Of a stretch of DNA of 64,000 nucleotides, positions 45,698 through 64,000 are shown piece by piece. A model generated the notes under the pieces. That model was not told the origin of the DNA. It saw only the letters and a program-made list of their open reading frames with translations, and made no database searches. The first letter of the stretch is position 1, and every line of letters begins with the position of its first letter. Source of the stretch: Candidatus Campbellbacteria bacterium (GTDB lineage: Bacteria > Patescibacteriota > Minisyncoccia > Phycocordibacterales > EsbW-18). Where the stretch lies: assembly GCA_016699465.1 (NCBI GenBank), contig CP064977.1, forward strand, positions 333,668-397,667. Direction: 5' to 3'. The position numbers and the translations under genes are program-made.

Positions 45698-45732
45698 CAT
45701 AAACAGGTGTCCTGCATGCAGGACACCTGTTT
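45698..45732. terminator. Perfect palindromic intrinsic terminator
   Basis: aaacaggtgtcctgca-tgcaggacacctgttt. Confidence 0.65.
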
Positions 45733-45756
45733 ACTCACGTAAAAATGTAAAGCCAC

Positions 45757-46410: not shown

Positions 46411-46532
46411 ACGATTTTACAAAATCGCGTCGCACAATTGTTGATTGTACGAAATCATGTCACGTACCGCCAATTGAGGTGTGACACAACGCGCGACGTA
46501 ATTTATCTAATAATTATTTTGTAATGTCTTCT

Positions 46533-46796: not shown

Positions 46797-46814
46797 ACAC
46801 CCAGACTTTTTATA

Positions 46815-47264: not shown

Positions 47265-47589
47265 ACGGATAGTATAGCAAAAAAGAACGCCCATACGAGT
47301 GGGTGTCTTTTTATTGGGTGAACGTGATTCGGCCAAGCGCTCACTCGTCGCCGTCGCTCCTCGCTCCGCTCAGCCCTGTTCGCACGACACGTTCTACTGA
47401 ACGCGTATCCGTGCCCACTTTCGAATCCCTCCCTCTCTTGCAAAAAGCAAAGTCGCGCAATACATACGTATTGCGCTCCTTGTTTTGCGGTGACGATGTC
47501 CCGAAGTTAGAACCTATTAGGTCGCTTCATTACACTCGTGTTGATAAAATTGTACGTGATTTAAGGCGAATTTACAAGGAAAATCCGGC

Positions 47590-47844
47590 CTATTTTGACG
47601 TTCCGGCTTTCGCAGGGCAGGTGGGCGAGCGCTGGCCGCAGCTTCCTCGGGCATCCTCGATTAATCTCTGTTCTTTGAGGTATCGGGTTACCGAATACCA
47701 CCCGGCATTGATCACCGGGATCAATAATGCCCAACGGGGGTCATTCTCGGCATAGGCTATCAGTATCGGCAGGATTGCTGATACTGCGGAGTAAAAGAAC
47801 ACGATCGCAAGGTGCTTCAGGGCTTCTTTTTGTGGTGTTGTCAT
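47590..47844 (-). CDS. Holin-like small two-TM protein (last gene of the lysis cassette)
   Basis: 84 aa with two hydrophobic helices (LAIVFFYSAVSAILPILIAY and WALLIPVINAGWYSV) and a charged C-terminus; adjacent to the endolysin. Confidence 0.4.
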   Translation of the reverse strand: MTTPQKEALKHLAIVFFYSAVSAILPILIAYAENDPRWALLIPVINAGWYSVTRYLKEQRLIEDARGSCGQRSPTCPAKAGTSK

Positions 47845-47849
47845 AGTGG

Positions 47850-48416
47850 TTAAAATGCTCGCTTAATAATTTCCAATCCTTCCTCGATTTTCCTCACACC
47901 ATCCTCGATAGAGGGATTGGCTGTCTGTTGGCCGGCAAGGGCTACCAGTTCGTCGAGAATCTGTTTGTTGCTCGCCGGACAGTTTGGTTTCTTTGAGAAG
48001 ATCTCAAAGTGGCCAACGATGTGATTCCGGTCGATTGGAATCTGCCATCGCTGGCAAATTTCTCGGATCAAGGTTGCACTTGATTGCTTCATAGAGTCAG
48101 TCCATACATCGTTTGGCTTACCCTCGTGTTCGATCCCGATCGTATAAAGGTTCGGGTTCACATTCGGTTTTATAAGCTTCCAGAGAGGTGCATCGACACG
48201 ACCGGCGTGCCAGGCGGAATCGTTTTCTTGCACATACTGGTGGACTTCGCCGCCTCTCCCAATCCCGTAATGTGCGCTTACTTGAGATGAAGTGTTTGCA
48301 AACCATGAATCGGTGCCAATGAGCGTGCCGTCCATGATGTGAATGACAACGCCCTCTGGCCGGTAACCTTTGCGACCAGACCAGAAGTTCGGGGATTTCT
48401 TTTGAATGATGTTCAT
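47850..48416 (-). CDS. N-acetylmuramoyl-L-alanine amidase (Amidase_2/PGRP fold) endolysin
   Basis: GVVIHIMDGTL...HYGIGRGGEVHQYVQENDSAWHAG...IGIEHEG...NHIVGHFEIFSKKPNCP shows the Zn-binding His/His/Cys pattern of T7-lysozyme/PGRP amidases. Confidence 0.8.
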   Translation of the reverse strand: MNIIQKKSPNFWSGRKGYRPEGVVIHIMDGTLIGTDSWFANTSSQVSAHYGIGRGGEVHQYVQENDSAWHAGRVDAPLWKLIKPNVNPNLYTIGIEHEGKPNDVWTDSMKQSSATLIREICQRWQIPIDRNHIVGHFEIFSKKPNCPASNKQILDELVALAGQQTANPSIEDGVRKIEEGLEIIKRAF

Positions 48417-48420
48417 AGAT

Positions 48421-48648
48421 TTATTTGTTAATGGTTAGTAGTAAATTGATGATGGCTGTGATCAGACCTCCCACCGATGCGGTGGCAACAATCCAGAAAA
48501 ATCGTTTGACCCAATCGACGTCCGTACCGACCTTTGTTAGTTCGGTCTGTATGTGTGGAAGATGATTGTCTTTGATTTCGTTGACGGAATTTTCCAGTCG
48601 ATTCAAGCGTTCATCCTGTATTTGGTTTTGGTAGTTATCTTTGTCCAT
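48421..48648 (-). CDS. Small coiled-coil protein with a C-terminal TM (holin/spanin-like candidate)
   Basis: MDKDNYQNQIQDERLNRLENSVNEIKDNHLPHIQTELTKVGTDVDWVKRFFWIVATASVGGLITAIINLLLTINK. The track ORF extends to 48792. Confidence 0.35.
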   Translation of the reverse strand: MDKDNYQNQIQDERLNRLENSVNEIKDNHLPHIQTELTKVGTDVDWVKRFFWIVATASVGGLITAIINLLLTINK

Positions 48649-48652
48649 ATTG

Positions 48653-51460
48653 TTATTTCGGTACGTACACCGAGTCGAACCTGTTGATGAGACCTCTGCT
48701 TTCCAGCGTTTCCTCGAGGCGATCTTGAATTTCACGATCTCGCCAGAATTTCTCTTTTTCCATATCGACTGATCTCGCTTTCGCACCGACAATTCCGTAT
48801 AGGAATTTCACAGCACCGGCAGTCTTATCATCGGTAAGCTTGCCGGCCGTGGTGTAGAAGCGTCCAAGAGCGGTGTTTAGGAAGTGGAGTTTATAAGCAT
48901 TGGCTCGGTAGCTCACAATGCCGTTCTTATTCGTATGCTCGGTTACTTCAAGCCAATCACGCAATCCGGGGACTGAATTCACGAACGGATACACTCTGCT
49001 GTTCTCGATGATCGGCTCTCCCATGAAGAGATTCTGTCCGGTGGCGGCTTCGATCGGATATTTAAGAAGCGGAGACAGTTCGCCAACGAAACTAGCCAAG
49101 GTTCTTTGCGGACTTCCTTTATAAAGTCGATTGATATCCTCAACCGGAAGACCGAGACCGTAGAGATATTGAGAGAATCCCTCTTTTTCGCCAAGTCGGA
49201 CCGGCAATCCTTCTCGCATGTACGGTGGCAAGTATTGGAATTCCTCTTTCGCTTTTTCTTTATCAACTTGTAGGTTATCTACGAGCTTGCCGATAGCACT
49301 GTACTTACCGGGCTGTTTTGTCATTTGCTCGAGCTGAAGCGGAATGTTGCCACGAGTCCATCGATAGAACGGCATGAGTCGCTTCATTATGTTTTGTTCG
49401 AATTTCGCAAGACCCTCCGGTGCATAGTCGAAGTGAAATTGGAACACTGCTTTGGCGGCATCTTCCGGTGCGTCACCCTTTATCAAGCGATCTATAAAAA
49501 GCGGTAGACGCAGACGGTTTTCAGTGATCTCCATCGCACCTTTTGGTAGATCCATCAATTTTCCGACAGCACCTTTACCGACATCTTTTTCGACCTCACG
49601 CATCACATCCAAGTAACCGGGCTGGCCAACGACTCCCAGCTTTTCGGTCATCTCTTTTATTTGTTGGTAGGTGTACTTAGTGCCTAGTTTTGTTGTGATT
49701 GATCCATTGAGACCTCGGGCGATTTGATCTCCTTGCAGATATCTCGCAGGGTTTTTAACCCCTGCTATCCAGTTATTGAAAATTCCACCGATCGAGTTCC
49801 TGACATGGAATGCTGGAAACCATCCGGTAACCGATCCTTTCCAGAAATTTAGTGTCTTGTCGTACAGCTTAAGGAACCCTTTGGTCGCTTCATCATTCGT
49901 AAGCACCTTATAAGTTTCCTCAACATGCTTAACGATCTGCTCAGGCAACAGCACTCCTTTTAATTGAGGCACGGTGCTCTCTACATACCGGATACCATTT
50001 TCAAAAATCGGTTTGACCGTTTCTTTGGTCATCATCTTTCCGGTGACAGGATTCCTTATTTCCTTAGTGACGACTTCACCTTGCTTGCCGAATTGTTTTC
50101 CAGCATCAGTTAAAAAGTCGTAGGTATTTACGGCTCTGATATGTTCGGCTTTGCGAGCACCGAATGCCTTAAATGCATCTTGCTCAAACAATCTCACGCC
50201 GTGAGTTCTACGGAAGTATTTATTGATATTGTCGATCGTGTCGTCGAGGGTTCGAGACTTTGCGAATGGCGTACTTACTCGCATCTTTCCAGCCAGTTCA
50301 TCGGCGACATCGCTATTCTTTTGTAAAAAGTCACGGCCTTCCGGTGTTAGGTAGTGACGTAGGTAATCCGGTAGCTCGGTGTGGAGTAATCCTTTTTCTT
50401 TTTCAACATTTGCAAATCGTTTGTGTTCATCTTGGATGTGACTGATGATGTTATCGATCGTGCTGTTTCCTTTGGCGGCGACTTGCTCGACTCCGTCCGT
50501 TGCTTTTGCAGGAAGCTCTCCCATCCCCTCAATCAGTCGGCCGACTCTCGTACCGGCATCTTTACCAAGTTCTTTTCTTGCGGTCTTGCCGAGCTCAATT
50601 GCTTCGTCAGCGGCCTTACCGACTTCGGACCGGGTCGCTTTGGTGAATTGAGAAAATTTGTCGACATATTCCTCTCCAATACGTCCCGGCAAGTCTTTGA
50701 TGCTTTTAAATGGCACGAATGCTTTACCGGCGAGGTCTTTTGCGCTCTCATACAGCTTGCCAACGACTGGCGTTTTTTCTACTAGCTTGTCTGCAACTTT
50801 GAATGGTGCTGTGACGGCTGATCGTGGAAGCACCTGTTTGCCAGCGAATTTCAGACCGCCTTTAGCAAGATACTTTTCGCCACCCTCTGCGAGTACCTTT
50901 TCGGCCAGAGCTTTTCGGGCGGCTGTTTCGCCGACTTCCTGTATCGACTTCTTGAGGAGTGACGTTCCGGATTTACTGAGCACGACCGTCCCAGCTTTGG
51001 TTGCAAGCTTCGCACCGGCCCCGTAGCCAAATGTGATATAGGTTGTCGGATCGAGCAGGACATCGGCAATAAAACCGCCGACTTTACTCTTGATACCAAG
51101 TGCTTCAGACGGATTGATGCGTTCTTGAATTCCGGCCTTGATTCCTTTTCCGCTTATGAGACCTCCGACAGCGTATCCGCCGGTATTGAGTACGTGGAGA
51201 ATTTTCTGTAGGGTCGATTCTTTTGGTTGAGTGGAGGAGACATCGAGATTATTTTGCAGTGCAAAGTCTCGCAACCCTTCGACAGTAGTCACGTTTGGTT
51301 TACCGGCCGGCTTCTCGACTTCGGTCGTTACATACTTTCCCTCGGCATTCTTTTGGTACTGCACGACGTTACCGGGTGCAGACTTTGGGAGTGGAGGAGA
51401 GACCGGCGCAGAACCGGTGTTTATGTATTTTCCAGTTTTCGGGTCTTTGATGTAGGCCAT
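48653..51460 (-). CDS. Large (935-aa) Lys/Ala/Gly-rich helical virion protein of unknown function (internal/ejection or tape-measure-like candidate)
   Basis: The N-terminal third is a low-complexity K/A/G/E-rich helical sequence (LAKGGLKFAGKQV...GKAADEAIELGKTARKELGKDAG). No enzymatic motif was recognised. It is the last structural gene before the lysis cassette. Confidence 0.4.
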   Translation of the reverse strand: MAYIKDPKTGKYINTGSAPVSPPLPKSAPGNVVQYQKNAEGKYVTTEVEKPAGKPNVTTVEGLRDFALQNNLDVSSTQPKESTLQKILHVLNTGGYAVGGLISGKGIKAGIQERINPSEALGIKSKVGGFIADVLLDPTTYITFGYGAGAKLATKAGTVVLSKSGTSLLKKSIQEVGETAARKALAEKVLAEGGEKYLAKGGLKFAGKQVLPRSAVTAPFKVADKLVEKTPVVGKLYESAKDLAGKAFVPFKSIKDLPGRIGEEYVDKFSQFTKATRSEVGKAADEAIELGKTARKELGKDAGTRVGRLIEGMGELPAKATDGVEQVAAKGNSTIDNIISHIQDEHKRFANVEKEKGLLHTELPDYLRHYLTPEGRDFLQKNSDVADELAGKMRVSTPFAKSRTLDDTIDNINKYFRRTHGVRLFEQDAFKAFGARKAEHIRAVNTYDFLTDAGKQFGKQGEVVTKEIRNPVTGKMMTKETVKPIFENGIRYVESTVPQLKGVLLPEQIVKHVEETYKVLTNDEATKGFLKLYDKTLNFWKGSVTGWFPAFHVRNSIGGIFNNWIAGVKNPARYLQGDQIARGLNGSITTKLGTKYTYQQIKEMTEKLGVVGQPGYLDVMREVEKDVGKGAVGKLMDLPKGAMEITENRLRLPLFIDRLIKGDAPEDAAKAVFQFHFDYAPEGLAKFEQNIMKRLMPFYRWTRGNIPLQLEQMTKQPGKYSAIGKLVDNLQVDKEKAKEEFQYLPPYMREGLPVRLGEKEGFSQYLYGLGLPVEDINRLYKGSPQRTLASFVGELSPLLKYPIEAATGQNLFMGEPIIENSRVYPFVNSVPGLRDWLEVTEHTNKNGIVSYRANAYKLHFLNTALGRFYTTAGKLTDDKTAGAVKFLYGIVGAKARSVDMEKEKFWRDREIQDRLEETLESRGLINRFDSVYVPK

Positions 51461-51466
51461 AGCTTT

Positions 51467-52804
51467 TTAATTTCCGATACCGAAGAGACCCTTCAAGAAG
51501 CTCTTACCGGTGTTGTATCCGGACTTCGCAAGGTTCGGTATCTGTTGAGTGAATACGTCTTTGACCCCAGCACCGAAGTCTTGAGCGGTTATCTTTGGCT
51601 GACCCGATTTCAATGCTTGAGCGGCGGCCGCATCCGCTTGCTGTTGGGCGTTTGCTTCAGCAACGATCTGATCTCGTTTCTGAAGTACTTGAGCACGGAT
51701 GTTTTGAGGCACGTTGCTTGCAGTGAAGTTAGGGTTGTTTAGAAGTTCGAGTGCGTATGCTTCTACGTCACTCGATGAACCGCCTCCGTCTGATCCGCTA
51801 CCAGACTTTGCACCGACTACTTTCGTACCGGCGATATCATGTACCGTTCCGGCCGGTGTACTGTTTGCGAGGTTTGCGAGTTGAATTGCTCGATCAATTA
51901 CGTCTTGGGCATCTTTCTTTTCCTCCGCTTTTCCATACTTGGAAGCTTCGACAATATTTGCGACATCTTTTTCTGAAGCACCGAATACTTGCTTCAAGAG
52001 ATCGCCAAGAACGCTGTATTGGTCTTTTTGGAATCCGAGTGTTTTTTCTGCAACAGTGAGTGGCAGTGTTGAATCCTCGTATTGCATGCCGGCCGCATCT
52101 TTCGCAGATGAATCTGCTACGCCGAGTTTGTCGGCCAGTCGGTTACGCTCGTTGAGAAGTTTCCGGTACTCGTCTATGAGCGGTTGTTTCTCTGAAGCGA
52201 CCAATCTTTGTGTTTGACTCTCGGTCACAAGGCCACCGCCTTGTACCATTCGGTTTCGGATGTCCTTCTCTGAGTCATCAATAGCAAGTTCCATCGATGC
52301 CAGACGATCATCTAAGCTCAAGAGATTTTTCTGCATCACATCAATACCTCGCTTCGCTTTTTCCTGCTCGTAGATGTCTGATTTTTTCGGCAGATTCTTG
52401 AGTGTATCGAGGTAGGCAGTCTGGTTGTCCTGCATGCTTTTGAGGGCAGAATCGAGACCGAGTTCAGATCGGTATTTTGTGAGCAAACTGGTCGAAGAAG
52501 GCACTTCAGCTCCGTATAGGGTGCTTTTGGCTGGCACGCCGCTCGTCCCAGGGCTCGAAATTTGGTCAATACGCTGGTTTACGGTCGAAGAAGGTGTCAC
52601 AGGTGCAGGTTTGGGTGAAGGGTTCGCCCCCGGGGCAACAACGGGTGAAGCCGGTGCTCCGGGCAAGCTCAAGCTCGCACCTGCGTATATCAGGTTCGGA
52701 TTCTTGATACTTGGATTCGCTTTCAGCAGGGCGTCGACCGTCGTCCCTTGCTGTTTGGCGATTCCCGAAAGGGTCTGACCTTTTTGTATTGTTATTGTTG
52801 CCAT
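51467..52804 (-). CDS. LysM-domain protein with a Pro-rich linker and a long coiled-coil region
   Basis: The N-terminus TITIQKGQTLSGIAKQQGTTVDALLKANPSIKNPNLIYAGASLSLPG is a LysM domain. Confidence 0.6.
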   Translation of the reverse strand: MATITIQKGQTLSGIAKQQGTTVDALLKANPSIKNPNLIYAGASLSLPGAPASPVVAPGANPSPKPAPVTPSSTVNQRIDQISSPGTSGVPAKSTLYGAEVPSSTSLLTKYRSELGLDSALKSMQDNQTAYLDTLKNLPKKSDIYEQEKAKRGIDVMQKNLLSLDDRLASMELAIDDSEKDIRNRMVQGGGLVTESQTQRLVASEKQPLIDEYRKLLNERNRLADKLGVADSSAKDAAGMQYEDSTLPLTVAEKTLGFQKDQYSVLGDLLKQVFGASEKDVANIVEASKYGKAEEKKDAQDVIDRAIQLANLANSTPAGTVHDIAGTKVVGAKSGSGSDGGGSSSDVEAYALELLNNPNFTASNVPQNIRAQVLQKRDQIVAEANAQQQADAAAAQALKSGQPKITAQDFGAGVKDVFTQQIPNLAKSGYNTGKSFLKGLFGIGN

Positions 52805-52810
52805 ATGTTT

Positions 52811-53023
52811 TTAAGTAAGGGGTGCGTACCTCCACGCTCCGTTAAAAAATACGTAGAACCGACGTGTCGCTCCGTTCTCGTACAGTGCAAAGCTGATCTG
52901 ATACTTTGGCGGATCAGTCGGCACACTGTTCAAGATCGGAATGTCCCGCAGAATTGAGAGTAGATACCCAAGCGACGGATCAAGTTTGTTTTGCTGGTTT
53001 GGATTGTTGTCGTGTGGGTTCAT
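52811..53023 (-). CDS. Small hypothetical phage protein
   Basis: 70 aa; overlaps the next gene by 4 nt. Confidence 0.3.
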   Translation of the reverse strand: MNPHDNNPNQQNKLDPSLGYLLSILRDIPILNSVPTDPPKYQISFALYENGATRRFYVFFNGAWRYAPLT

Positions 53024-53274
53024 AGTGGTTGCTCTCCGATTTCTGGTTCGACTACAGGTTCCTCTTTAGGAGGGACCGGCAGTTTGTCGAATTCGGAGAT
53101 GATCTCGCTTATCTCTGCAAGCGATCTTTGTCTGAGATCGACCTCTTGTTCAAGTTCCTCTTTTTGTTGGCGGAGGACATCCATGTTGAGAATCGTGACC
53201 GACTCAGTGTTGTCCTTTTTTCTCGCAGTCTTTTCATCGATTCTTTCGATTGTGAATTTTGATGTAGGTTCCAT
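53020..53274 (-). CDS. Small acidic coiled-coil phage protein
   Basis: 84 aa, E/K-rich. Confidence 0.3.
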   Translation of the reverse strand: MEPTSKFTIERIDEKTARKKDNTESVTILNMDVLRQQKEELEQEVDLRQRSLAEISEIISEFDKLPVPPKEEPVVEPEIGEQPL

Positions 53275-53285
53275 AGTGATGTTGA

Positions 53286-55088: not shown

Positions 55089-55093
55089 AGGTT

Positions 55094-55726
55094 TTATACG
55101 AGACTGCTTCTCGGAATTGAGGCCTGATCATCTGCGGCCGCCATGCGTGCAAGTTCTTGATCACGCCATTTGCCGACCATGATCCGTTCGAAGTTGCTTT
55201 CAGCTTGGCGTTCGAGTTCCGTGTCGCCCTGCTGGTTGTAGTACATCTTTTTGCCCCACTCGACGTACGCTTGGTGATAGAGTTTTTCGACTTCCGGTTC
55301 GTCGCTGTCTGATGCGAAGTCATCCGATATGCGGACAAAGACGAGCATCATTGCATCGCCGTCTGCGGTTGGAGTTGTTACCGGATAGAAGTAACCGCCG
55401 AGCGTGTACACAATGTGATCGTTGTATCGGTCTCTTGCTCGGTAATCGACGAGCGTGAACGGACGCTTGTCGTCGCCGATCTTTAATTCCACGAATGCCC
55501 GGTAGTTTTCAGGGACCGGGTATTTCGGTTGATTTGCAACGGTCGTGTACGGCTGTTCGGTCTTGAGATAGTCCCAGTAGTCAAACGTCTGGTTTTTATC
55601 CTCAGGCGGCCGCCAGCTTTGCACCTTTTCATCGGCACGCTGTACCCACGAGTTTGCAAGTGTGTCATCGATCGTCTGATCGTCGACCTCGTTCTTTATT
55701 GCTTTTCGGATGTCGCCTCTGTTCAT
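55094..55726 (-). CDS. Hypothetical virion protein (210 aa)
   Basis: Located between the tail-fibre genes and the 600-aa protein. Confidence 0.3.
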   Translation of the reverse strand: MNRGDIRKAIKNEVDDQTIDDTLANSWVQRADEKVQSWRPPEDKNQTFDYWDYLKTEQPYTTVANQPKYPVPENYRAFVELKIGDDKRPFTLVDYRARDRYNDHIVYTLGGYFYPVTTPTADGDAMMLVFVRISDDFASDSDEPEVEKLYHQAYVEWGKKMYYNQQGDTELERQAESNFERIMVGKWRDQELARMAAADDQASIPRSSLV

Positions 55727-55732
55727 AAGCGT

Positions 55733-56047
55733 TTAGATGTCATCACGGATGATGATTGATAATTGTTTGAACCCGGTCTGAATTTTTGCATCAGGGAACG
55801 TCACCTCGACCTCACCGAGATACGTTCCGACCGTGTTCGTGTCGGAGGCCGTCCAGTTGTATCGGCATTTTCCTTTAGTTGCGTCAGTGATAACGCATGC
55901 CACGCCGTTAATCTTTACCGATCCAGTGGAGGAGTCCTTCATGTAGAACTTCACCGTGCATCCGGTTAAATCCACCGGCGCACCGTCTTGTGTCAGACTG
56001 AATTCCAGTGGAGGACGGGTGTCATTTTGTACGATTTTGATGCTCAT
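55733..56047 (-). CDS. Small all-beta (Ig-like) phage structural protein
   Basis: IVQNDTRPPLEFSLTQDGAPVDLTGCTVKFYMK resembles the N-terminal Ig-like domains of phage baseplate/receptor-binding proteins. Confidence 0.3.
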   Translation of the reverse strand: MSIKIVQNDTRPPLEFSLTQDGAPVDLTGCTVKFYMKDSSTGSVKINGVACVITDATKGKCRYNWTASDTNTVGTYLGEVEVTFPDAKIQTGFKQLSIIIRDDI

Positions 56048-57345
56048 AGGTTTATGTCTTGATTATTGCCCGGAAGAGTCACATCGGCCTTGGCGTTTTG
56101 AAGCTGTTGATCTTGTCGGGCAGTCTTGACCTCAATACTGCTTTTAGATGTTGTAAGACCGAACGTTTCTCTGGCCGAGAGCATCAGCACCGATACTTTC
56201 GCCGACAGGAATTCGATTGCGATCTTTAGTCCGGGAGGAATTTTCAGGATGTCCCACACGTACTTCCACGTCCTCGATACCAATCCTCGAATGTCGAGGA
56301 GGTATGTCCATGCTTTTCCGATTCCGAGCAGGATATCGAGTCGATACGTCCAGACTTTTGCAATGTGGCTTAGGATGTCGAATGCGTAAGTGATCGACTT
56401 TGAGACAAAGCTCGTGATATCCCATAGGTAGCTGGTTACTCTTGATGCGAGTGTCCGGACGTCCCATCTGTAAGTCAGCACTGTTGCTATAAGTCCTCTG
56501 ATATCGAACAGGTATGTCGATACTCTGGTCGCAAGACTTCTCATGTCGAGGAGGTACGTCATCTGCTTTACTGCACTCATCAGCACATTGAACACATACT
56601 CAGTGCTTTTGCTTACTGTGCCGGCCATGTCGAAGAGGTACTGCACGGCCTTGGTCGCAAGGTTTCGGATATCGATCACGTATGTCCACGTCTTACTGAT
56701 TAGGTTTCGGATATCTAGTAGGTACGCAGTCGACTTTTCGGCGAGATTTCTCAGGTCGAGTCGGTACGTCATGATCTTTGCGACCACGTCACCAATGTCG
56801 ATCAAGTAGGATGTGAGCTTTGTCGCAAGGTTTCTTATATCTAGCCGGTAGATTGTTTCTCTGGTGGCCGACAGGAACGAATCAAACACATAAGTTATCG
56901 TCTGGCCGATCGTGATCAGGATGTCACTCAGATACGTCGTGCTTTTAGTCGCCAGATTTCTCACATCGAGCTTGTACGTCATTGTCATGATCGCACCTCC
57001 GATAATGTCGATCAGATATGTGATTTGCTTTGCGATGAGTTGCAGTCCGTCCCAGAGGTATGTGGATGTCTTGTCGATCAGGCTTCGCATGTCGAAGACA
57101 TACGTCAGGGCTTTTTCAGCAAGAGCGTACACGTCCATGAGATACGTTTCTATTTTCCCAGCGAGATTTCGGATATCGGTCAGGTACGTTCGCACAGCTT
57201 CCACCGTTATCATCTGGTCGAAGACATACGTGATTGGTTTTGCTACCAATCCGAACGCATCGAGCACATAGTTCATCACCTTACTCACGACTGAAGAGCC
57301 GGTGTCATTGAGTCTTGCACTGTTGAATTGGTAGGAGTTGAACAT
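56044..57345 (-). CDS. Fibrous repeat protein: about 26 tandem copies of a 14-residue motif T-Y-[LV]-x-D-[IML]-R-x-L-A-x-K-x-x (likely a tail-fibre shaft)
   Basis: Read directly from the translation: TYLLDIRNLATKAV, TYRLDLRNLAEKST, TYVIDIRNLATKAV, TYLLDMRSLATRVS, TYLFDIRGLIATVL and further copies. The hydrophobic residues at repeat positions 2/6/9/13 give a 4-3-4-3 heptad spacing. The DNA shows a diverged 42-bp periodicity. Confidence 0.6.
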   Translation of the reverse strand: MFNSYQFNSARLNDTGSSVVSKVMNYVLDAFGLVAKPITYVFDQMITVEAVRTYLTDIRNLAGKIETYLMDVYALAEKALTYVFDMRSLIDKTSTYLWDGLQLIAKQITYLIDIIGGAIMTMTYKLDVRNLATKSTTYLSDILITIGQTITYVFDSFLSATRETIYRLDIRNLATKLTSYLIDIGDVVAKIMTYRLDLRNLAEKSTAYLLDIRNLISKTWTYVIDIRNLATKAVQYLFDMAGTVSKSTEYVFNVLMSAVKQMTYLLDMRSLATRVSTYLFDIRGLIATVLTYRWDVRTLASRVTSYLWDITSFVSKSITYAFDILSHIAKVWTYRLDILLGIGKAWTYLLDIRGLVSRTWKYVWDILKIPPGLKIAIEFLSAKVSVLMLSARETFGLTTSKSSIEVKTARQDQQLQNAKADVTLPGNNQDINL

Positions 57346-57351
57346 AAGTGT

Positions 57352-58905
57352 TTATCCAGTTGATGGGATGTTTGTGCCTCTCACTGAGTTGGTTCCTTGC
57401 AGTCCGATCTGTCCGGTTACGCCATCCTTGCAGACATTTGCGATTGCCAGATTGAAGTCATCGCTCGTACTCTGTTCACGGATGTGATAGGCGGCCTTAT
57501 TCGCTTGGGTCGCTTGGCAGTTATTCGAGGAGATAACGTTATAGGTTGAGTAAACCGATCCGTTGTTGGAGAGATAGATACTGTGTGACGTGTTGTTGGT
57601 GCTTCTGGAAGCATTGTCGATGGCGTTTCCGGTGACGGTGTTGTAGGAAGAGCCGTACAGGTAGATTCCGTGACCTCCGCATCCGAAGATGTGATTGCCA
57701 GTTACCACGTTATTGATCGTGGTACCGCTTCCGTGATAGAGAGCGATGCCTTGGCTCGTCGCCCATGCGATCGTATTTCCGGAGATGACGTTGTACTTGG
57801 TTATGTTTGAGCTGTTTCCGATAATCATTCCCCAGCTATCGCCGTAGAGATGATTGCCTGTCACAGCATTTCTTTGACCTCCGACTATGTACACTCCGTA
57901 GTTTGTGCTGGTGAAGATGGCATTGCCGGAGATAGCTTCTCGCCAAGCGTTGCTTAGATAGAAACCGTAGCCGTTGCTTCGGCTAACATTGCCGGTCATC
58001 GTGTTGTAGTTGCATCCGCTGTCATACACGCCATAACCGTTTGAAGTCAGAACATTTCCAGTGATCGTGTTGTGCTGTGAGCTGGTGAAGAGTCCTATTC
58101 CGGTTCCGGTGTTGTCGTGGATGAAGCAATTTCTGATGATGCTTTCCTCGGTGCCGATAACTTTCAGGCAGTCGAGGCGAGCACCGGTGAGCCAGCAGTT
58201 CTCAATGAGGATTCGTTTGTGTTTGTTTGAGCTCGTACCCCAGAGTACAAGTGGACTGGAATTTCCGGAAGTTTGATTTGCTTGATTGCCGTCGATTTTC
58301 AAGTTTCGAATGACGATATTTGAGTACGGTGTTGTACCTCCATCTCCCACACGCAAGATGTCGCCGAGGTTGCTGGCATTGGCCGCTTTTATAAGTGTCG
58401 CCGCCCCTTCACCCTCAAACACGACATTGTCTTTGAGAATTTCGACAAGACCGGTTAGTGTGTACGTTCCTTTTTTCAAACGAACGATACCGCCACCGGC
58501 TGGCAAGTTGCTAATCGCTTCATTTATCTCCGTTTGATCATCTGTTCCATCGCAGTTGTAATCTCCTGAATCGTCCGTTGCGACTATGATCTCGGTTCGG
58601 GTTTGGAAGTCGTCAAAGAGCTTGGCTGTTACCAAGAGTTCTATTCGGCTGTTTTGCGCCCATGCTTGGGCGGTTGTGTTTTCTTTGGCTCGTTCGATTG
58701 TGAACGCATCTGTCGATTTGGCAGTTACTTTCACAATTTCTCCCACGCTTGGGTCGCTCGTGTAGAGCGTGGCGTGGAATGGAGCCGCCGGAAACTTTGC
58801 ACCGTCGCCGGTCTGCACGTTCACGGTTGTCGCACCCGATGTCAGAGGGTTATCCGTGATTGTGCTCTTGGCGTTATTCTTTTTTGTTAAGAATGTTTTA
58901 GCCAT
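57352..58905 (-). CDS. Tailspike/tail-fibre protein with a right-handed parallel beta-helix (pectate-lyase-like) repeat region
   Basis: Tandem NxxxG[NT]xxxG rungs such as NTITGNVLTSNGYGVY, NTMTGNVSRSNGYGFY, NAVTGNHLYGDSWGMI, NVISGNTIAWATSQGI and NVVTGNHIFGCGGHGIY. Confidence 0.65.
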   Translation of the reverse strand: MAKTFLTKKNNAKSTITDNPLTSGATTVNVQTGDGAKFPAAPFHATLYTSDPSVGEIVKVTAKSTDAFTIERAKENTTAQAWAQNSRIELLVTAKLFDDFQTRTEIIVATDDSGDYNCDGTDDQTEINEAISNLPAGGGIVRLKKGTYTLTGLVEILKDNVVFEGEGAATLIKAANASNLGDILRVGDGGTTPYSNIVIRNLKIDGNQANQTSGNSSPLVLWGTSSNKHKRILIENCWLTGARLDCLKVIGTEESIIRNCFIHDNTGTGIGLFTSSQHNTITGNVLTSNGYGVYDSGCNYNTMTGNVSRSNGYGFYLSNAWREAISGNAIFTSTNYGVYIVGGQRNAVTGNHLYGDSWGMIIGNSSNITKYNVISGNTIAWATSQGIALYHGSGTTINNVVTGNHIFGCGGHGIYLYGSSYNTVTGNAIDNASRSTNNTSHSIYLSNNGSVYSTYNVISSNNCQATQANKAAYHIREQSTSDDFNLAIANVCKDGVTGQIGLQGTNSVRGTNIPSTG

Positions 58906-58923
58906 AGCTCATCGATCTTTCGT

Positions 58924-59703
58924 TTACGCCGCCGTGTCACCCTCGGACTTCACTTGGGTTGAATTGGCGGTTACTGCACCGGCTCCAGCTGGCCACGTTA
59001 GGCGATACCAGAGTCCGAAGTTTCCAGCGGACGCAATGTCACCGTGTTCCATGCCGGCCACCTTGCTTGCCATGTTTCCTCCCTCGGCATCTATCGGAGA
59101 TCCGCCGGAGTAAACTCTGCCGTACCAGATAAAGCTGATCTTTTTGTTTATTCCGATGGTTCCTCGGGTAGTGCCTCCCGATCCTTGCCGGATCGTCACA
59201 AGGCGTGATCCAGAGAGCGATGCCACATACGCACCGTAGAGTTTGGAGAACGTCAGAGCACCCACGACTTCGGTGGTGCCGTTCAGTGTCAGGTTTTCCG
59301 TCTGTCTGTTTCCGGATGCATCCTCTCCGACAACCGTCACTTGTCTGGTGTCAGCACCGTCGGAAACAACGGCCACGACAGCGTTTGCGGAAAATGCCGA
59401 CATGTTTCCTTGAGCACCGTCATCATCATCGGCATGATCGATTCCGAATCCGAACGAGAGGGCGGCGTTGGTCGGCTGTGACTGTAGCCACGTCACGACG
59501 TTCTGCCACGAAAGCGATCCGTGTGTGTTCTTGCGGAAGGCTTTTCGGTATTCAGTGCCTCCGGCCGCCGCTTCGTCACCGGTTATATCGGTGAAGAGAT
59601 TGTTGTCGACGTTGTCCACGACTTCTACTGCCGTGATTTCACCGCCGTCTGAGTCAACACTGTTTGACTCATATTCTTTTAAGTCTGCTGATACGATTGC
59701 CAT
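58924..59703 (-). CDS. Hypothetical Gly/Ala/Asp-rich phage structural protein
   Basis: Located between the capsid module and the tailspike. Confidence 0.3.
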   Translation of the reverse strand: MAIVSADLKEYESNSVDSDGGEITAVEVVDNVDNNLFTDITGDEAAAGGTEYRKAFRKNTHGSLSWQNVVTWLQSQPTNAALSFGFGIDHADDDDGAQGNMSAFSANAVVAVVSDGADTRQVTVVGEDASGNRQTENLTLNGTTEVVGALTFSKLYGAYVASLSGSRLVTIRQGSGGTTRGTIGINKKISFIWYGRVYSGGSPIDAEGGNMASKVAGMEHGDIASAGNFGLWYRLTWPAGAGAVTANSTQVKSEGDTAA

Positions 59704-59738
59704 AAGATTGGTGTGTTATTAGCGACCTCATGTTCGGT

Positions 59739-60137
59739 CTATTTGCCTTGCAGAAGTTCGATCAGACGGTCTTTTGTTTCGGACCCGTCCAGTTCGACAT
59801 TTTTTTCACCAGCCAAGGTTTGTAATTCCTTTTTGGTGAGCTTCTGCAGTTCGCCGTCGACCGTCGGCGGATCAATCGGCGATGATTCCTCGGAGACTTT
59901 CCAGAAATCGATGCCGTAAGTTGGGAGACCTTCTAACTTGGAAACGTGTTCCTCGTTTGAGGTCTCGAATTGTCCGTCCGCGAATTGTGCGTACTCGCCC
60001 GGGGTGTCTCCGACCTTGAGGCCTCCCTCGAATATCGGCTGGGCGGGCTTGAGTACGATTCGCAGACTTTTGATGTGTGAATTGAATTTAGCCATAAGTA
60101 AGTTTGGGTGATTAATGTTTGTAATTTCGGCCTCCAC
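59739..60137 (-). CDS. Small head-associated protein with a C-terminal Rho-N/SAP-like helix-hairpin motif
   Basis: LTKKELQTLAGEKNVELDGSETKDRLIELL resembles the Rho_N-type motif that is common at the C-termini of phage capsid-associated proteins. Confidence 0.35.
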   Translation of the reverse strand: MEAEITNINHPNLLMAKFNSHIKSLRIVLKPAQPIFEGGLKVGDTPGEYAQFADGQFETSNEEHVSKLEGLPTYGIDFWKVSEESSPIDPPTVDGELQKLTKKELQTLAGEKNVELDGSETKDRLIELLQGK

Positions 60138-60199
60138 CCTTACTCCTGGCCTCCACGTGAGTGAAAGCCAGCGAGTAAGAGCAGAGACGCTTATTCGAT

Positions 60200-61423
60200 T
60201 TAGGCGACGCCCTTGAGCAATGCGTTCTTTTCGAAGTTGACTCTCTGCAAACCGGCTTCGGTCTTATACTGATCGACTTCCTCGTCAGCATCGTTGTCCT
60301 GAATGTTGGTTTCGAGCATGGTGTCTCGACCATTCAGTGGGCAATGCTTGAGCGTGGAGAGATCGACCACTACACCGATACCGGCGTACTGGTTGTCGAA
60401 CATCGGGTGACGGACAATGTTCAGCGTTCCGAATGACGACTGGAACTTACGGATTTCGACTCCGAAGGTCTTATCGCTCGGTACGATGTACATCTTGGAA
60501 GTTGCAAAGCTTTCCAAGTATCCGAGCACGGTGTTACCGCAGAAGAAATACTTCTCGGCTGATCCGTACTTGAACGCATAATTCTGGAGGAACGATCGGA
60601 ATTCAGCTTCGGTTAGAGCTGAAGCCGCCTCGTCCTGGACGTTGCCGGCGGCTGTGATCGCTTCCAAGATTCCTCCGGAGAGGCGAAGCGGTTTGCCGTC
60701 GGGACCGGTCACTTCTTTCTTTTCACCGAACCAGTACGCACGCTCGATTTTCTTTGCTTGTTCAATACCATGCTTTGCACGCAGGTACTTCAAGTCCGCA
60801 CCGGGGTTACCGGACGGATAGAGCTTCGAGGCGTTCTCAGTTGCAGTGACGCCGAATTTGGTCTTGAAGATTTGGGTGAAGTTAGTGACCTTCACGAGTT
60901 TAGTCGTGTTGGAATCGCCAGACTTCGATCCTTCCTCAAAGGCCGGACCGATGACCAACAGCCAATCGTTATCTAAGATAGCGGCGGCCGCTGTTGCACC
61001 GGCTCCACGAGCTACTGTGAGGGTATTCGTGGAGTAATTGACTGAAGTGACTCGCATGATTTCACCAGTACGGGTGTTTTTCACCAGATCGTACTTTGTG
61101 AAGATCGATGCTCCTGGGCTGTCTACGACCAACGCCGTGTCACCGGATGCGTATCCGGCACCGTTGTTGATTCGAGCCCAGACTCCGGAATACTGATCCT
61201 CATATTCAGTGAATTCCGGGTTGTACACGACTCTCTTTTGAAGAGCCATGCCCTTGAACTTGCCACCGCCGTCACCGATCTTTCCGATTTGGGTCAAGAA
61301 AGCTGTGAGCGGCGATTCTCCGGGTTCAAGCAGGAAGATTTTGTCGTCGACATCGGGAATACGCTGTGACTGTTCGATAGTCAACGTATCTCTCGTGCCG
61401 ATGATGTGTGCAGGTTCTGCCAT
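60200..61423 (-). CDS. Putative major capsid protein
   Basis: 407 aa, directly downstream of the acidic scaffold-like gene in the portal-scaffold-capsid order. The fold was not verified. Confidence 0.5.
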   Translation of the reverse strand: MAEPAHIIGTRDTLTIEQSQRIPDVDDKIFLLEPGESPLTAFLTQIGKIGDGGGKFKGMALQKRVVYNPEFTEYEDQYSGVWARINNGAGYASGDTALVVDSPGASIFTKYDLVKNTRTGEIMRVTSVNYSTNTLTVARGAGATAAAAILDNDWLLVIGPAFEEGSKSGDSNTTKLVKVTNFTQIFKTKFGVTATENASKLYPSGNPGADLKYLRAKHGIEQAKKIERAYWFGEKKEVTGPDGKPLRLSGGILEAITAAGNVQDEAASALTEAEFRSFLQNYAFKYGSAEKYFFCGNTVLGYLESFATSKMYIVPSDKTFGVEIRKFQSSFGTLNIVRHPMFDNQYAGIGVVVDLSTLKHCPLNGRDTMLETNIQDNDADEEVDQYKTEAGLQRVNFEKNALLKGVA

Positions 61424-61479
61424 AGGTTGTGGTTGTTACTGCCGGCAACCGCTCACGAGACCTCAAAATCTTATAAGCG

Positions 61480-62322
61480 TTACCGGACTTTATTTGGGTT
61501 AATACTTTCACCGACAAGATCATCGAATGGATTCTCTTGGTCGGTTTTGCCTTTGGCGGCCGGTTGGCCACCGCCGACTCCTGATGCATTCTCTCGTTCG
61601 AGGTTTTTGACTTCCTCTTTCTTGAGAGCTTCGTCAGCCGCTTTCTTTGTCTGCGAATCCTTGGTTACGGAATCGTAGGCCAGTTGAAGCGTTCGGGCAT
61701 TGAACGGAAGCTTTTCTTTCTCGATCAAGTCGAGAATCTGGTGACCGATCTCAGGAGTTCTGAAGTCCTCGTGATCCTCGATCCACTTGTCGATCTCGGC
61801 CTTGGTCTTTGCTTTCGTTTCCCGTTCCTCGAGCTTCTTATCGAGGAGAGTGTCTATGTCCGGTTGATCCTCTGGCTCTGCATCGCTGGCTTTCATAGCT
61901 TCGGCAATACTTGCTTTCAGCTGTTCGGCTAGTTGCGGATTCTTGACCAGTGCCTTATCGAGTACTGAGAGAAACTGTTGGTTTTTCTCGCTTGCGGTTT
62001 TGAGATCGTTGATCTCTTTGCCTTGATCGATAATCTTGGTCTGAGCTTCGTCATACGAGCGTTTAGCATCATCCTCGCTCTTGAACTTGCCCCAGAAGGT
62101 CTTGTCGCCCTCGGGCTTTTTGTCTTTGTCCTCGGGACTTTCGCCTTTATCGGCTGGCGTACCGCCGGATTGATCCTCGGGTTTCGAGGCGTCCGGTTTC
62201 TTGTCAGGTTGTTCCTCTTTCGAGGTGCCCGACGGGATTGAATTGACCGGTTGTTCCTTGCCGACTGCATCGTCAAATGACGGTGTATTCGGTTCGGCGC
62301 CGGATTCGTTTGGTTTTTCCAT
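61480..62322 (-). CDS. Putative scaffolding protein (acidic, coiled coil)
   Basis: Highly charged D/E/K-rich sequence between the portal-like and capsid-like genes. Confidence 0.45.
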   Translation of the reverse strand: MEKPNESGAEPNTPSFDDAVGKEQPVNSIPSGTSKEEQPDKKPDASKPEDQSGGTPADKGESPEDKDKKPEGDKTFWGKFKSEDDAKRSYDEAQTKIIDQGKEINDLKTASEKNQQFLSVLDKALVKNPQLAEQLKASIAEAMKASDAEPEDQPDIDTLLDKKLEERETKAKTKAEIDKWIEDHEDFRTPEIGHQILDLIEKEKLPFNARTLQLAYDSVTKDSQTKKAADEALKKEEVKNLERENASGVGGGQPAAKGKTDQENPFDDLVGESINPNKVR

Positions 62323-62516
62323 AGGCGTGTTTATTGCAGATTGATCCTTGGTTTCCGATCACGGTCGGAACGTCGGCGTCTGCTGTTAATAAAACCGAGC
62401 CCCTTTTCGGGAGGCTCGGTTGGTCTCTCAAGATGTAGGAAATCGCCAGAAATCCCATCTTAAGAGGCCAGCTGAACCCCTCAAAAAGTTTGGCGATTTC
62501 CTTTGGTTGTTTGGTT

Positions 62517-62756
62517 TTATGTTGGTGCTTTCATATGTTCATCGTGAATAGCTTTGATCTGCAGGAGAATGATTCCGAGTCCTTCGGCTCGACCTTGATA
62601 AAACCGAATCTCGTCTGCAGTCAGTTGTTTGTTGAGTAGCCACGTCTTTGTGGTATCAAGTTCGTTCGCAATAAGCTCGGACAACGCTTCAAAATACTTG
62701 GTTTCGTACAAGTTGCTGATCGTCGCTTCTATGTCTTTGTGAAGTGTTTTGGTCAT
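62517..62756 (-). CDS. Small helical phage protein
   Basis: 79 aa. Confidence 0.3.
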   Translation of the reverse strand: MTKTLHKDIEATISNLYETKYFEALSELIANELDTTKTWLLNKQLTADEIRFYQGRAEGLGIILLQIKAIHDEHMKAPT

Positions 62757-62761
62757 ATGTG

Positions 62762-64000
62762 TTATTGCCTCATTGCGTTACCGAGAACCGCACCCATTTC
62801 GTTACCGGGGAGTCCTTGCTCTGGCACTACGTCGGGTGGTGTGTCGATCGCAGGTGCATCACCGGCCGGCATTCCGGTATCAGTTGGATTCATTGGGTCA
62901 ACCGGAGGCGTGACCGGCTGTTGTTTTATTTCGCTAATGTAGTTGTCTGGTTCCCAGCCATAATCCTCAAAGAGCTTCATTAGGATTTTGAATTTCTTGA
63001 CGGAGTATGTCGTACCGGTTTCCGCATCCACGATCTGGTCTACGTCTTTGATCAGTCCCCAGAGTTCCAAGTCTTTTGACTTCTTAAGTTCAGAGGAAGA
63101 AGCAAGAGCCGATGTTGATTCGAGTGATATCTCATATTCATCGTCAAAGAGTCCTTCAATGTTTTCCACTTCAGGGGTTATAAGTCCGTGTCGGATCATG
63201 ATTGCTACGGCTTTGTCCGGAACAACGCTTTTGGTCGTCCAGAATTGTTTGACCATGCAGATCCAGTGTTCAAAGTGCATGATGTACGAACCTCGAAGCA
63301 TAATCAGGAAGAGCTTCACGCCCTCTAGTGTTGCCTCACGCATAAACGAGGCGACTGTTGCTGTTTCTCTTGAGTCCTTGCCGGCCGTCGTTGTGTATTC
63401 GTCTACACCTACGGCGATTCGCATTGCTTCTTTGATGTGATTCGGCTCGATAAATGCAGAGGAGTTCACGTCGCCAAACTTCAGCTCTTTGACTGAGTTC
63501 GGATCATTCGTCCATAGGATTCCAAGCGGTCTTACAGTGATGCTTGATTGCTTGTATCCGGGGAGAGCTACTGGTGCCGCCGCAATCATGCTGTGTATTT
63601 TCATCGTGATTGCATCCACTCTCTGGTTGGTCACAGAATTCAGGAGTTCTTGCAAATGGTCTACGAGCTTCGGGATACCGAGCCAGTAAAATGAGAATGG
63701 TCGGGGGAAGAAGCCAGTTCGTGAGTAGGGCTTTTGCTGGTGGTCGTATGGGTTATCACCGTCCTTGATCTCTATCGGTGTGCCGTCCATCGGCAGGAAC
63801 ACGCAGATATGGTCGTCAGTCCATCGCTCTACGACTTCGAAGAGCTTATCGTCTGTCGTTGGCATTTGGACCGGGTTGTTTGGGTTGCCTTGGATCGGAG
63901 AGGACGCTTTGGTTGTCTCTCGGAGATTCTTTCGTAGTTCTAGGAGGACTTCTTTTCTCACGTAGGCATAGTCGGTAGTGTCACCGCCGGACTTTGTTAC
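62762..64000 (-). CDS. Putative portal protein, N-terminus beyond the window edge
   Basis: The frame is open to position 64000 (the first codon of the track ORF is GTG). The C-terminus is a Pro/Asp-rich flexible tail, and the gene sits upstream of the scaffold/capsid genes. Confidence 0.4.
   Translation of the reverse strand, partial: VTKSGGDTTDYAYVRKEVLLELRKNLRETTKASSPIQGNPNNPVQMPTTDDKLFEVVERWTDDHICVFLPMDGTPIEIKDGDNPYDHQQKPYSRTGFFPRPFSFYWLGIPKLVDHLQELLNSVTNQRVDAITMKIHSMIAAAPVALPGYKQSSITVRPLGILWTNDPNSVKELKFGDVNSSAFIEPNHIKEAMRIAVGVDEYTTTAGKDSRETATVASFMREATLEGVKLFLIMLRGSYIMHFEHWICMVKQFWTTKSVVPDKAVAIMIRHGLITPEVENIEGLFDDEYEISLESTSALASSSELKKSKDLELWGLIKDVDQIVDAETGTTYSVKKFKILMKLFEDYGWEPDNYISEIKQQPVTPPVDPMNPTDTGMPAGDAPAIDTPPDVVPEQGLPGNEMGAVLGNAMRQ

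Follow-up and report, generated by a model that had tools for sequence, protein, structure and literature searches.

A podovirus-type prophage at a tRNA-Ser gene of a Patescibacteria chromosome, with an integrase reading frame that may cross its attachment site

The DNA analysed here, referred to as the window, is a 64,000-nucleotide stretch of contig CP064977.1 from a Candidatus Campbellbacteria assembly (GCA_016699465.1). Its right-hand part (47,487-64,000) carries a block of phage genes that we consider, with high confidence, to be the right-hand late-gene part of a temperate podovirus-type prophage of ~38 kb in a Patescibacteria chromosome. The guanine-plus-cytosine (GC) content is 0.494 in the phage part (47488-64000) versus 0.433 in the cellular part (1-47339), the GC content at third codon positions (GC3) of the genes is 0.55 versus 0.35, and 2-kb windows run at 0.40-0.47 before 47 kb and at 0.47-0.52 beyond it. 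All long open reading frames (ORFs) between 47590 and 64000 lie on the minus strand, overlapping or separated by a few bases, and 19 of the 19 ORFs of this 16.5-kb block are intact and tightly packed. A first-pass annotation, made from the letters of the window and a list of its ORFs, had already described this co-directional block and the shift in GC, and on both counts it agrees with our data. Its claim that CpG-containing codons become frequent stands for CCG and CGG, and could be extended to ACG, but fails for TCG, which is unchanged, while GCG, CGC and CGT fall. Nor does the module start at 47300, as had been proposed; the true boundary lies at 47487-47490 (Table 1).

The capsid gene encodes a protein with a strong match to the Pfam family SU10_MCP (Table 1) that also matches the capsid protein of phage VP1 in the PDB (9in6, E = 2.4e−25), and its identity to any cultured phage is below 30%. 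The portal match is weak at the level of sequence, with 17.7 bits to SU10_portal for the fragment in the window and 22.1 bits for the full-length protein against a cut-off of 30, together with a PHROG portal match at E = 1.5e−4. Portal homologues were gathered in more than 100 clusters, many of them with precomputed matches to PF23899 or PF16510. We modelled the portal through a full-length homologue (P0093) that is 96% identical to the window fragment, and the best 50 PDB matches of this model in Foldseek were all phage portals (probability 1.00, E down to 6.9e−13), nearly all of them podoviral (Pan3, N4, DEV, VP1, SU10, PaP3, P22 and T7). PDB searches by sequence only, with a single sequence or a profile, returned nothing useful for the portal. 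Profile searches for the capsid and structure prediction for the portal homologue thus give substance to what had been labelled capsid-like and portal-like, and with the large terminase found just outside the window in other contigs they support the call of a phage structural and lysis module.

When the window proteins were looked up by exact match, copies of this element turned up in more than 20 independent assemblies, with a nucleotide identity of 96-99%. Next to the portal gene on its upstream side, these sister contigs encode a 535-549-aa protein that matches the nuclease domain of T4 gp17 (E = 7.8e−9) and is the large terminase, then a 140-aa ORF with ParB_N and Dam-type methylase genes and, further on, divergent Fic, RadC and a 929-aa PHP/SMC-like ATPase. 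The small ORF next to the large terminase is possibly the small terminase. The whole element is present on a 55.9-kb IMG/VR contig that is 80-85% identical to the window, with a similarity that stops at 47487. There the order is tRNA-Ser(CGA), a large serine recombinase, a repressor with helix-turn-helix (HTH) and Peptidase_S24 domains, HTH proteins, a small tyrosine recombinase, a PD-(D/E)XK nuclease, the PHP/SMC-like ATPase, two methylases, RadC, Fic, a zeta-toxin-like kinase and the terminase-to-lysis block, and the tRNA lies ~37.9 kb from the right end. The capsids of the window and this relative share 95% protein identity and 85% DNA identity, a difference indicating purifying selection. 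The large serine recombinase of the relative (L025:13844-15460) contains Resolvase (2.1e−30), Recombinase (2.3e−12) and Zn_ribbon_recom (1.3e−11) domains, and its adjacency to tRNA-Ser is repeated in five further contigs. The tyrosine recombinase of the relative (273 aa) was considered as the integrase and rejected, as it adjoins neither end of the element; it is more likely accessory. That the element extends past 64000, as the first-pass annotation had suspected, is borne out by the terminase and onward genes of the sister copies and the relative.

The boundary of the element could be placed to the base by comparison with L039, a contig that is 99.9% identical to window positions 45704-47493. 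In L039 the phage is replaced by CCGAGGGTTCGAATCCCTCCCTCTCCGC, which is the 3' end of a tRNA-Ser, and is followed by the same AAAACAAGGAGCG...; across the junction the window reads ...CGTCACCGC followed by AAAACAAGG, and L039 reads ...CTCTCCGC followed by AAAACAAGG. L039 is an unoccupied (empty) site. A second host contig, L038 (98.4% identical), is without the segment 47340-47486, and its similarity stops at 47339; an Rfam search of this junction region (47340-47486) gave no match. In other contigs the right end of the element always reads ...GGTTCTAACTTCGGGACATCG(T/C)CACCGC and then passes into differing sequences, of which at least four were seen at first and dozens later. A metagenome scan with a 20-nt arm gave at least 120 matches, many from groundwater, again with dozens of flanks, which mostly start with CA or A, and conservation of the right-end arm (P arm) extends over more than 100 metagenome contigs. 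At the opposite end of the IMG/VR relative (attL), an intact tRNA-Ser runs through ...CTCCGCCA into GATGTCCAAGTTAGAACC, an imperfect inverted repeat of the right arm. In six contigs, with three host tRNA-Ser(CGA) sequences among them, attL always consists of ...CTCCGCCA followed by GATGTCC.A.TT.GAACC. The phage attachment site (attP) was reconstructed as GGTTCTAACTTcgGGACATCg(c/t)CACCGCCAGATGTCCAAGTTAGAACC, with inverted-repeat half-sites around a short core, and its identity to the bacterial site (attB) is confined to CCGC(CA). Because of the attL of the six contigs and the empty site in L039, we place the attP arms around CCGC(CA) and attB at the extreme 3' end of tRNA-Ser, an arrangement that leaves the tRNA intact at attL and makes the junction in the window attR. 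It had been reported that no integrase, terminase or tRNA attachment site was visible in the window and that the element might continue beyond it; the continuation stands, and the statement on the attachment site does not, since the window contains attR and a sister contig supplies attB.

Several further observations concern the surroundings of this site. At ~70 nt downstream of attB, part of the tRNA 3' end recurs in inverted orientation (GAGAGGGAGGGATTCGAA; window 47420-47476; L039 60-110), and a similar inverted copy follows tRNA-Ser(GCT) in L038 (5553-5640); these may be recombination relics or structural elements. The motif …ACTAAGTATCGGAGT.A.CC…, found downstream of tRNA-Ser, occurs after tRNA-Ser(GCT) in L040 (2183-2215) and in the attR flanks of L142, L201 and L026, which would mean either that several tRNA-Ser isoacceptors are used or that a conserved element lies downstream of these tRNAs. 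An inversion of a tRNA-Ser and DnaJ segment between L038 and L039 was considered and could not be established, as the tRNA-downstream regions are alike for only ~100 nt. In L007 (5290-6800) an attP-like junction follows the phage right end and leads into a 1.3-kb mini-element (an HTH_5 regulator and a flavin mononucleotide (FMN) reductase) and then a second right arm, a tandem array at the same tRNA site.

The final ~140 nt of the element are conserved even in elements that are otherwise unrelated to this phage, and they show a coding-type pattern on the strand opposite to the late genes. When the right and left ends of the IMG/VR relative were joined, simulating excision, the integrase ORF continued in frame across the junction to 554 aa and ended in ...TWTSGGGDVPKLEPIRGLHYSRVDKIVRDLRRIYKDNPASFDVPAFAVKVY; the integrated gene ends instead in residues from the antisense tRNA. 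We collected 77 distinct right-end peptides with a conserved stop position, of which 35 have exactly 46 residues and ~20 belong to a second conserved type of 54-58 residues. Mean pairwise divergence at codon positions 1, 2 and 3 is 0.20, 0.16 and 0.34, and single-step codon differences comprise 3212 nonsynonymous versus 4745 synonymous changes (ratio of counts 0.68), so that the conserved frame and the excess at third positions indicate purifying selection on this segment. There is no conserved start codon at any position of the right-end segment. A separate small gene, for instance for an excision factor, was rejected on the grounds that the ORF has no such start and begins exactly at the crossover. 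Given the in-frame ORF, the 77 conserved peptides, the third-position excess and the lack of a start codon of its own, we infer an integrase gene that contains attP and has its 3' part at 47489-47614 on the plus strand. In the window copy the frame stays open to 47755, and the usual last four codons and stop are absent.

A wider proposal follows these data, and we regard it as evenly poised between right and wrong: that a serine recombinase targets the 3' terminus of tRNA-Ser with an ORF spanning attP, so that integration trades a tail of 46-58 residues for antisense-tRNA residues and acts as a built-in switch between a free and an integrated form of the integrase, and that the same module of integrase, repressor and attachment site also mobilises non-phage cargo islands (copper, metal resistance) in Patescibacteria and forms tandem arrays at the same tRNA. 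Two contigs, L121 and L123 (1-11650 in each), have the same integrase with an S24 repressor, a Cro-like protein and HTH_36 abutting tRNA-Ser(CGA), together with genes for copper resistance (CsoR-like regulator, P-type ATPase, multicopper oxidase) or for metal transport and iron-sulphur proteins. No phage structural genes were present within the ~10 kb fetched beside the integrase in these two contigs, which could be cargo islands or perhaps phage satellites. We also observed that many serine recombinases only 25-40% identical (P0040-P0078) end in peptides resembling translated tRNA (…GFEP…, …RDSNP…, …GIEPT…), suggesting a far broader clade with ORFs that run into tRNA genes.

The mechanism that we envisage draws in large part on what is known of the protein families concerned. 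The serine recombinase would cross over at a dinucleotide within CCGC, joining the core at the tRNA-Ser 3' end (CCGC, or CCGCCA where the host encodes CCA) to the same core in attP between its inverted arms. A CI-like repressor with an S24 peptidase domain would hold lysogeny, the late genes would build a short-tailed virion, and the amidase and small membrane proteins would lyse a cell that has no outer membrane. On the excised circle the join would read from ...CGTCACCGC to CAGATGTCC..., and the integrase frame across attP would read GGACATCTGGCGG(T/C)GA(C/T)GATGTCCCGAAG, giving an integrase that ends in the conserved 46-residue tail encoded at the right end of the phage. In the prophage this tail would be swapped for antisense-tRNA residues. 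By analogy with Mx8 IntP/IntX and the SSV-type integrases (PMC4383910, PMC7253208), the C-terminal swap may help to set the direction, level or activity of recombination.

The junction core, the matching empty site and the constant position of a serine recombinase beside tRNA-Ser in the relatives together lead us to read the block as a prophage with a defined attR; the element is integrated and very probably belongs to a temperate podovirus of a candidate phyla radiation (CPR) bacterium that is complete or was so until recently. It is unlikely, in our judgement, to be a defective or decaying remnant that keeps its structural and lysis genes and no longer excises or forms particles, having lost the end of its integrase or suffered the lesion at 47614-47645. 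Nothing beyond the portal is visible in the window, a private 32-nt replacement alters both the holin-like protein and the integrase 3' segment, and metagenomes contain many remnant and tandem junctions of elements in this family, all of which would suit a remnant; yet every ORF of the block is intact and packed, near-identical sister copies occur in many samples with the terminase side in place, and an empty site at 99.9% identity implies recent integration or excision in the population. The abrupt change in composition, and the fact that we did not find a second assembly with exactly this flank and this phage, might also be expected if a free phage contig had been misjoined to a Patescibacteria fragment near 47.3-47.5 kb. 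Such a chimera is very improbable, as the break falls exactly at the 4-bp core common to the phage arm and the tRNA-Ser 3' end, the host side continues exactly as L039 does downstream of the tRNA, dozens of independent assemblies likewise have this phage end attached to host DNA at the very same base, and phage and host genes have the same style of translation start (described below). The possibility of a chimeric join at 47.2-47.7 kb, raised in the first-pass annotation, is excluded on this logic of a break at a shared attachment core and tRNA 3' end. Least probable of all is a Mu-like transposable phage, which the four or more differing flanks of the first contigs examined could have suggested. 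We found no DDE transposase, the flanks mostly start with CA or A, as after a tRNA 3' end, and random insertion is ruled out by the identified tRNA-Ser attB, the large serine recombinase that stands beside tRNA-Ser every time and the conserved attL.

Some results weigh against the prophage reading as we have put it. The integrase, repressor, terminase and attL all lie outside the window, so the completeness of this copy rests on its relatives, and the private 32-nt substitution could reflect early decay or an assembly error. The 28-nt tRNA fragment in L039 corresponds to the 3' end of tRNA-Ser(GCT) in L038, while the six attL sites are at tRNA-Ser(CGA). Confidence in the portal model is moderate (predicted local distance difference test (pLDDT) 58), and the nozzle call described below depends on a beta-propeller, a fold frequent outside phages. 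As to the integrase, its un-integrated (attP) form was not found among the contigs and proteins searched: a scan of a viral collection with the right arm returned only the known relative, and the DVPKLEP tail is absent from 92 representatives of integrase homologues and from ~140 listed cluster members, so that the database homologues are all of the integrated form. Where metagenomes do show attP-like junctions, these are tandem or remnant arrangements with no integrase behind them.

The remaining late genes (Table 1) follow the order portal, scaffold-like protein, capsid, spike and fibre, adaptor, nozzle, large proteins and lysis, which fits a short-tailed phage. The adaptor gene had been passed over among unspecified "small proteins", a label that was incomplete. 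Directly after it comes the gene for the 600-aa protein, whose model has its best full-length PDB matches in P22 gp10, the Pan3 tail complex and Sf6 gp8, with T7 gp12 at rank 46. Unlike this structural likeness, sequence similarity to P22 gp10, Sf6 gp8 and T7 gp12 is not detectable, and identity in the structural alignments is ~10%. We assign this protein as the nozzle on the strength of its model, with the caveat that the beta-propeller fold is generic; weak KOW/L24-like matches of its profile were disregarded. In T7, too, the nozzle gene directly follows the adaptor gene. Sequence-only PDB searches were useless for the 600-aa protein, the 935-aa protein and the adaptor, and the 935-aa protein had no family or PDB match. 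Internal core proteins are encoded at a comparable gene position in T7-like podoviruses. In the 445-aa protein the PHROG matches are confined to the LysM part. None of the ORFs between the capsid and lysis genes matched families of tape measure, tail tube or sheath proteins, with the 935-aa and 445-aa proteins left without an assigned role. The podovirus-like architecture suggested in the first-pass annotation is supported by this lack of a recognisable tape measure, tube or sheath, by the SU10-type adaptor and nozzle-like propeller, and by the podovirus-type matches of the portal.

For the scaffold-like protein and for the 14-residue-repeat protein, Pfam and PHROG profile searches gave no family match. 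The 14-mer repeat itself, noted earlier, is real: autocorrelation peaks at 14, 28, 42 and 56 residues and there are ~25 copies. This protein may be a fibre, and its repeat fold one that has not been described before. In the small post-capsid protein, weak PHROG matches cover the C-terminal 40 residues. The acidic character of the scaffold-like protein, the lysine-rich character of the 935-aa protein and the transmembrane segments of the small lysis proteins had all been read correctly from the window.

The endolysin is identical in nine other contigs, and the holin-like gene lies directly after it; no Pfam or PHROG family matched the holin-like protein. The small proteins of the cassette are predicted to act as holins from their position and topology. 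The three-gene cassette, with an endolysin between small membrane proteins and without spanins, has the arrangement of a monoderm host. Through the 32-nt substitution that is private to the window copy, the holin-like protein acquires a changed C-terminus, growing from 69 to 84 aa, and the integrase segment loses its stop.

Table 1. Features of the attachment region and of the phage block in the window (positions in nucleotides of the window; a point in the strand column marks features given no strand).
Feature	Position	Strand	Basis and remarks
Host DNA just downstream of the tRNA-Ser attB (B' side of attR)	47340-47486	.	Identical to L039, where it directly follows the tRNA-Ser 3' end
attR crossover core, GCGG on + strand (CCGC in phage orientation), common to phage end and tRNA-Ser 3' end	47487-47490	.	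Window versus L039
P arm, GGTTCTAACTTCGGGACATCGTCACCGC (phage orientation), imperfect inverted repeat of the integrase-side P' arm in relatives	47487-47514	.	Arm comparison
Putative detached 3' segment of large serine recombinase gene, 42 conserved codons, GDDVPKLEPIRSLHYTRVDKIVRDLRRIYKENPAYFDVPAFA	47489-47614	+	ORF of joined ends; conservation
Holin-like small membrane protein, 84 aa (69 aa in sister copies)	47590-47844	-	Hydrophobic segment at residues 9-33 and a second hydrophobic stretch
32-nt substitution unique to the window copy, in place of ~55 nt of sister copies	47614-47645	.	Alignment with L008, L009, L011, L007, L203, L129, L215, L014
Endolysin, N-acetylmuramoyl-L-alanine amidase	47850-48416	-	Pfam Amidase_2, E = 4.7e−27
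75-aa protein, coiled N-terminal part and one C-terminal transmembrane helix (residues 49-73); candidate holin or lysis accessory protein	48421-48648	-	Gene also in sister contigs
935-aa basic protein; candidate internal virion/ejection protein by position only	48653-51460	-	Isoelectric point (pI) 9.4, 10% lysine
445-aa protein, N-terminal LysM; candidate peptidoglycan-binding virion/ejection protein	51467-52804	-	Pfam LysM, 2.9e−12
Two small ORFs, 70 and 84 aa	52811-53274	-	No matches; stop/start overlaps with adjacent genes
Tail hub/nozzle protein (assigned from model), beta-propeller, 600 aa	53286-55088	-	AlphaFold2 model, pLDDT 79, predicted template modelling score 0.84
Head-to-tail adaptor	55094-55726	-	Pfam SU10_adaptor, E = 2.1e−14, 54.8 bits versus cut-off 27
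104-aa BppU_N-like protein; candidate fibre/spike attachment module	55733-56047	-	Pfam BppU_N, 9.3e−13
433-aa repeat protein; candidate fibre	56044-57345	-	~25 tandem 14-residue repeats, xKxxTYxxDxRxLx
Right-handed beta-helix tailspike	57352-58905	-	Pfam Beta_helix 4.7e−26, NosD 2.6e−20
259-aa acidic protein, pI 4.5	58924-59703	-	N-terminus resembles uncharacterised phage families (phrog_13135, E = 2.2e−10)
Small post-capsid protein, 118 aa from the ATG used in sister contigs L001-L006	59739-60137	-	C-terminal helix-extension-helix-like motif
Major capsid protein	60200-61423	-	Pfam SU10_MCP, E = 1.4e−40, 140.1 bits versus cut-off 24.1
Scaffold-like acidic protein	61480-62322	-	Between portal and capsid genes; pI 4.7, 23% Asp + Glu
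79-aa protein	62517-62756	-	Protein look-up; exact conservation in at least 23 contigs
Portal protein, C-terminal ~410 of 631 residues; gene runs beyond the window	62762-64000	-	Weak SU10_portal and PHROG portal matches; fold of model

The cellular part of the window (1-47339) contains a type IV pilus operon (PilM, PilO, PilB, PilT, PilC, pilin and prepilin peptidase) along with a ComF-like phosphoribosyltransferase, LigA, GatA, FtsK, a class II ribonucleotide reductase and five tRNAs. The nearest PilB sequences come from metagenome-assembled genomes (MAGs) labelled Saccharibacteria, Taylorbacteria, Paceibacterota and Kaiserbacteria, and wherever a source is named for a portal or integrase homologue it is a Patescibacteria MAG, in some cases with the gene on a contig of 0.9-1.5 Mb. 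The host is thus confirmed as a member of the Patescibacteria (CPR) of the Parcubacteria/Minisyncoccia type. A 4-base Shine-Dalgarno (SD) core precedes 6 of 31 host genes and 2 of 15 phage genes, and in the 22 nt upstream that were examined both sets commonly have an A/C-rich context, often with ...AACAC(T) or AACCT just before the ATG. As both gene sets are poor in SD cores and have the same A/C-rich context, the phage genes follow the host's unusual style of initiation despite their differing base composition. The picture of a reduced, SD-less host with a competence pilus, given by the first-pass annotation, is matched by this SD-poor chromosome and its type IV (competence-type) pilus operon.

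The accessory region of the element, from RadC/Fic to the terminase side and also past RadC (L001-L005, L016, L024), varies among otherwise near-identical phages. At the point where the Fic and Dam genes diverge there is a zeta-toxin-like kinase, a sigma-70 r4-like ORF or a 157-aa ORF, and L003 lacks two methylases and two unknown genes that the IMG/VR relative has. Just outside the attR of the relative, L026 (11000-20564) carries a pair resembling a cyclic-oligonucleotide-based antiphage signalling system (CBASS), with a SMODS-like nucleotidyltransferase and a Cap15 receptor domain, together with another large serine recombinase and the R subunit of a type I restriction system; this right flank resembles a defence island at the same tRNA hotspot.

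Among cultured phages, the SU10 (Kuravirus)-type podoviruses, such as Vibrio phage VP1 and Pseudomonas phages 119X and PaP2, share with the window phage the SU10-based Pfam families of capsid and adaptor, the VP1 capsid match, the likeness of the portal model to the portals of SU10, VP1, N4, Pan3 and PaP3, and the order portal, scaffold, capsid ... adaptor, nozzle. They differ from it in capsid sequence (identity below 30%), in the spike and fibre genes that the window phage has between capsid and adaptor, in its temperate lifestyle, as indicated by the integrase and CI-like repressor of its relatives, and in its Patescibacteria host. SU10 itself is a lytic Escherichia coli phage with a much larger genome. 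The element is closer in general character to reported prophages of Patescibacteria and Paceibacteria: in the available extracts of two surveys, Paceibacteria prophages average 43.7 kb (PMC12455944), most predicted Patescibacteriota phages are temperate (PMC12911398), and the description of temperate tailed phages of ~40 kb in ultra-small groundwater bacteria fits what we see (PMC12455944, PMC12911398). As far as those extracts go, the surveys differ from the present case in consisting of predictions by automated tools, without an attachment site or an integrase mechanism (PMC12455944, PMC12911398).

The integrase of the relative resembles the large serine integrases of phiC31, Bxb1, A118 and SPbeta in its Resolvase, Recombinase and Zn_ribbon_recom domains, and the reconstructed site resembles theirs in the inverted-repeat arms of attP, the very short core and the absence of a long terminal direct repeat. 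These four integrate inside protein-coding genes, whereas the present element targets a tRNA-Ser at its 3' end and its integrase ORF appears to cross attP. According to the literature, tRNA genes are not among the known targets of serine-family integrases (PMC4383910), these enzymes are described as inserting inside genes (PMC8092301, PMC5704250), and integrase genes that contain attP have been described only for tyrosine recombinases (PMC4383910, PMC7253208, PMC12169736). We found no counter-example in open-access text, either to the novelty of tRNA targeting by a serine integrase or to that of an ORF spanning attP. The nearest parallels are Mx8 IntP/IntX, the archaeal SSV-type "suicidal" integrases, the Riemerella RAP44-like phages and the integration-dependent immunity of mycobacteriophages, in all of which the crossover site lies within a coding sequence and integration alters an integrase or repressor gene (PMC4383910, PMC7253208, PMC12169736, PMC8092301); the RAP44-like phages also use the 3' end of a tRNA-Ser. 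However, those systems rely on tyrosine recombinases, and the element described here, with its serine recombinase, is not a member of that group. It differs further from these systems in that only the last ~46 codons would be exchanged, leaving the catalytic and DNA-binding domains intact.

To our knowledge, no phage of Patescibacteria has been cultured, and phage-host links in this group are mostly statistical. The lineage described here is tied to its hosts by exact junctions, with an attachment site resolved to the base and a readable virion plan, and it offers a concrete and widespread model lineage for CPR phage biology. Prophages of Patescibacteria are already known from metagenomes, and as a prophage the element is moderately interesting; the arrangement of its integrase is the part that deserves attention, and the integration module may be a new variant. 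Serine integrases are widely used in genome engineering, where control of their directionality is a central problem. If true, the change of the integrase C-terminus upon integration would extend to serine integrases a principle of control so far confined to tyrosine recombinases, and the recombinase with its pair of attachment sites could in principle become a genetic tool for bacteria that have almost none.

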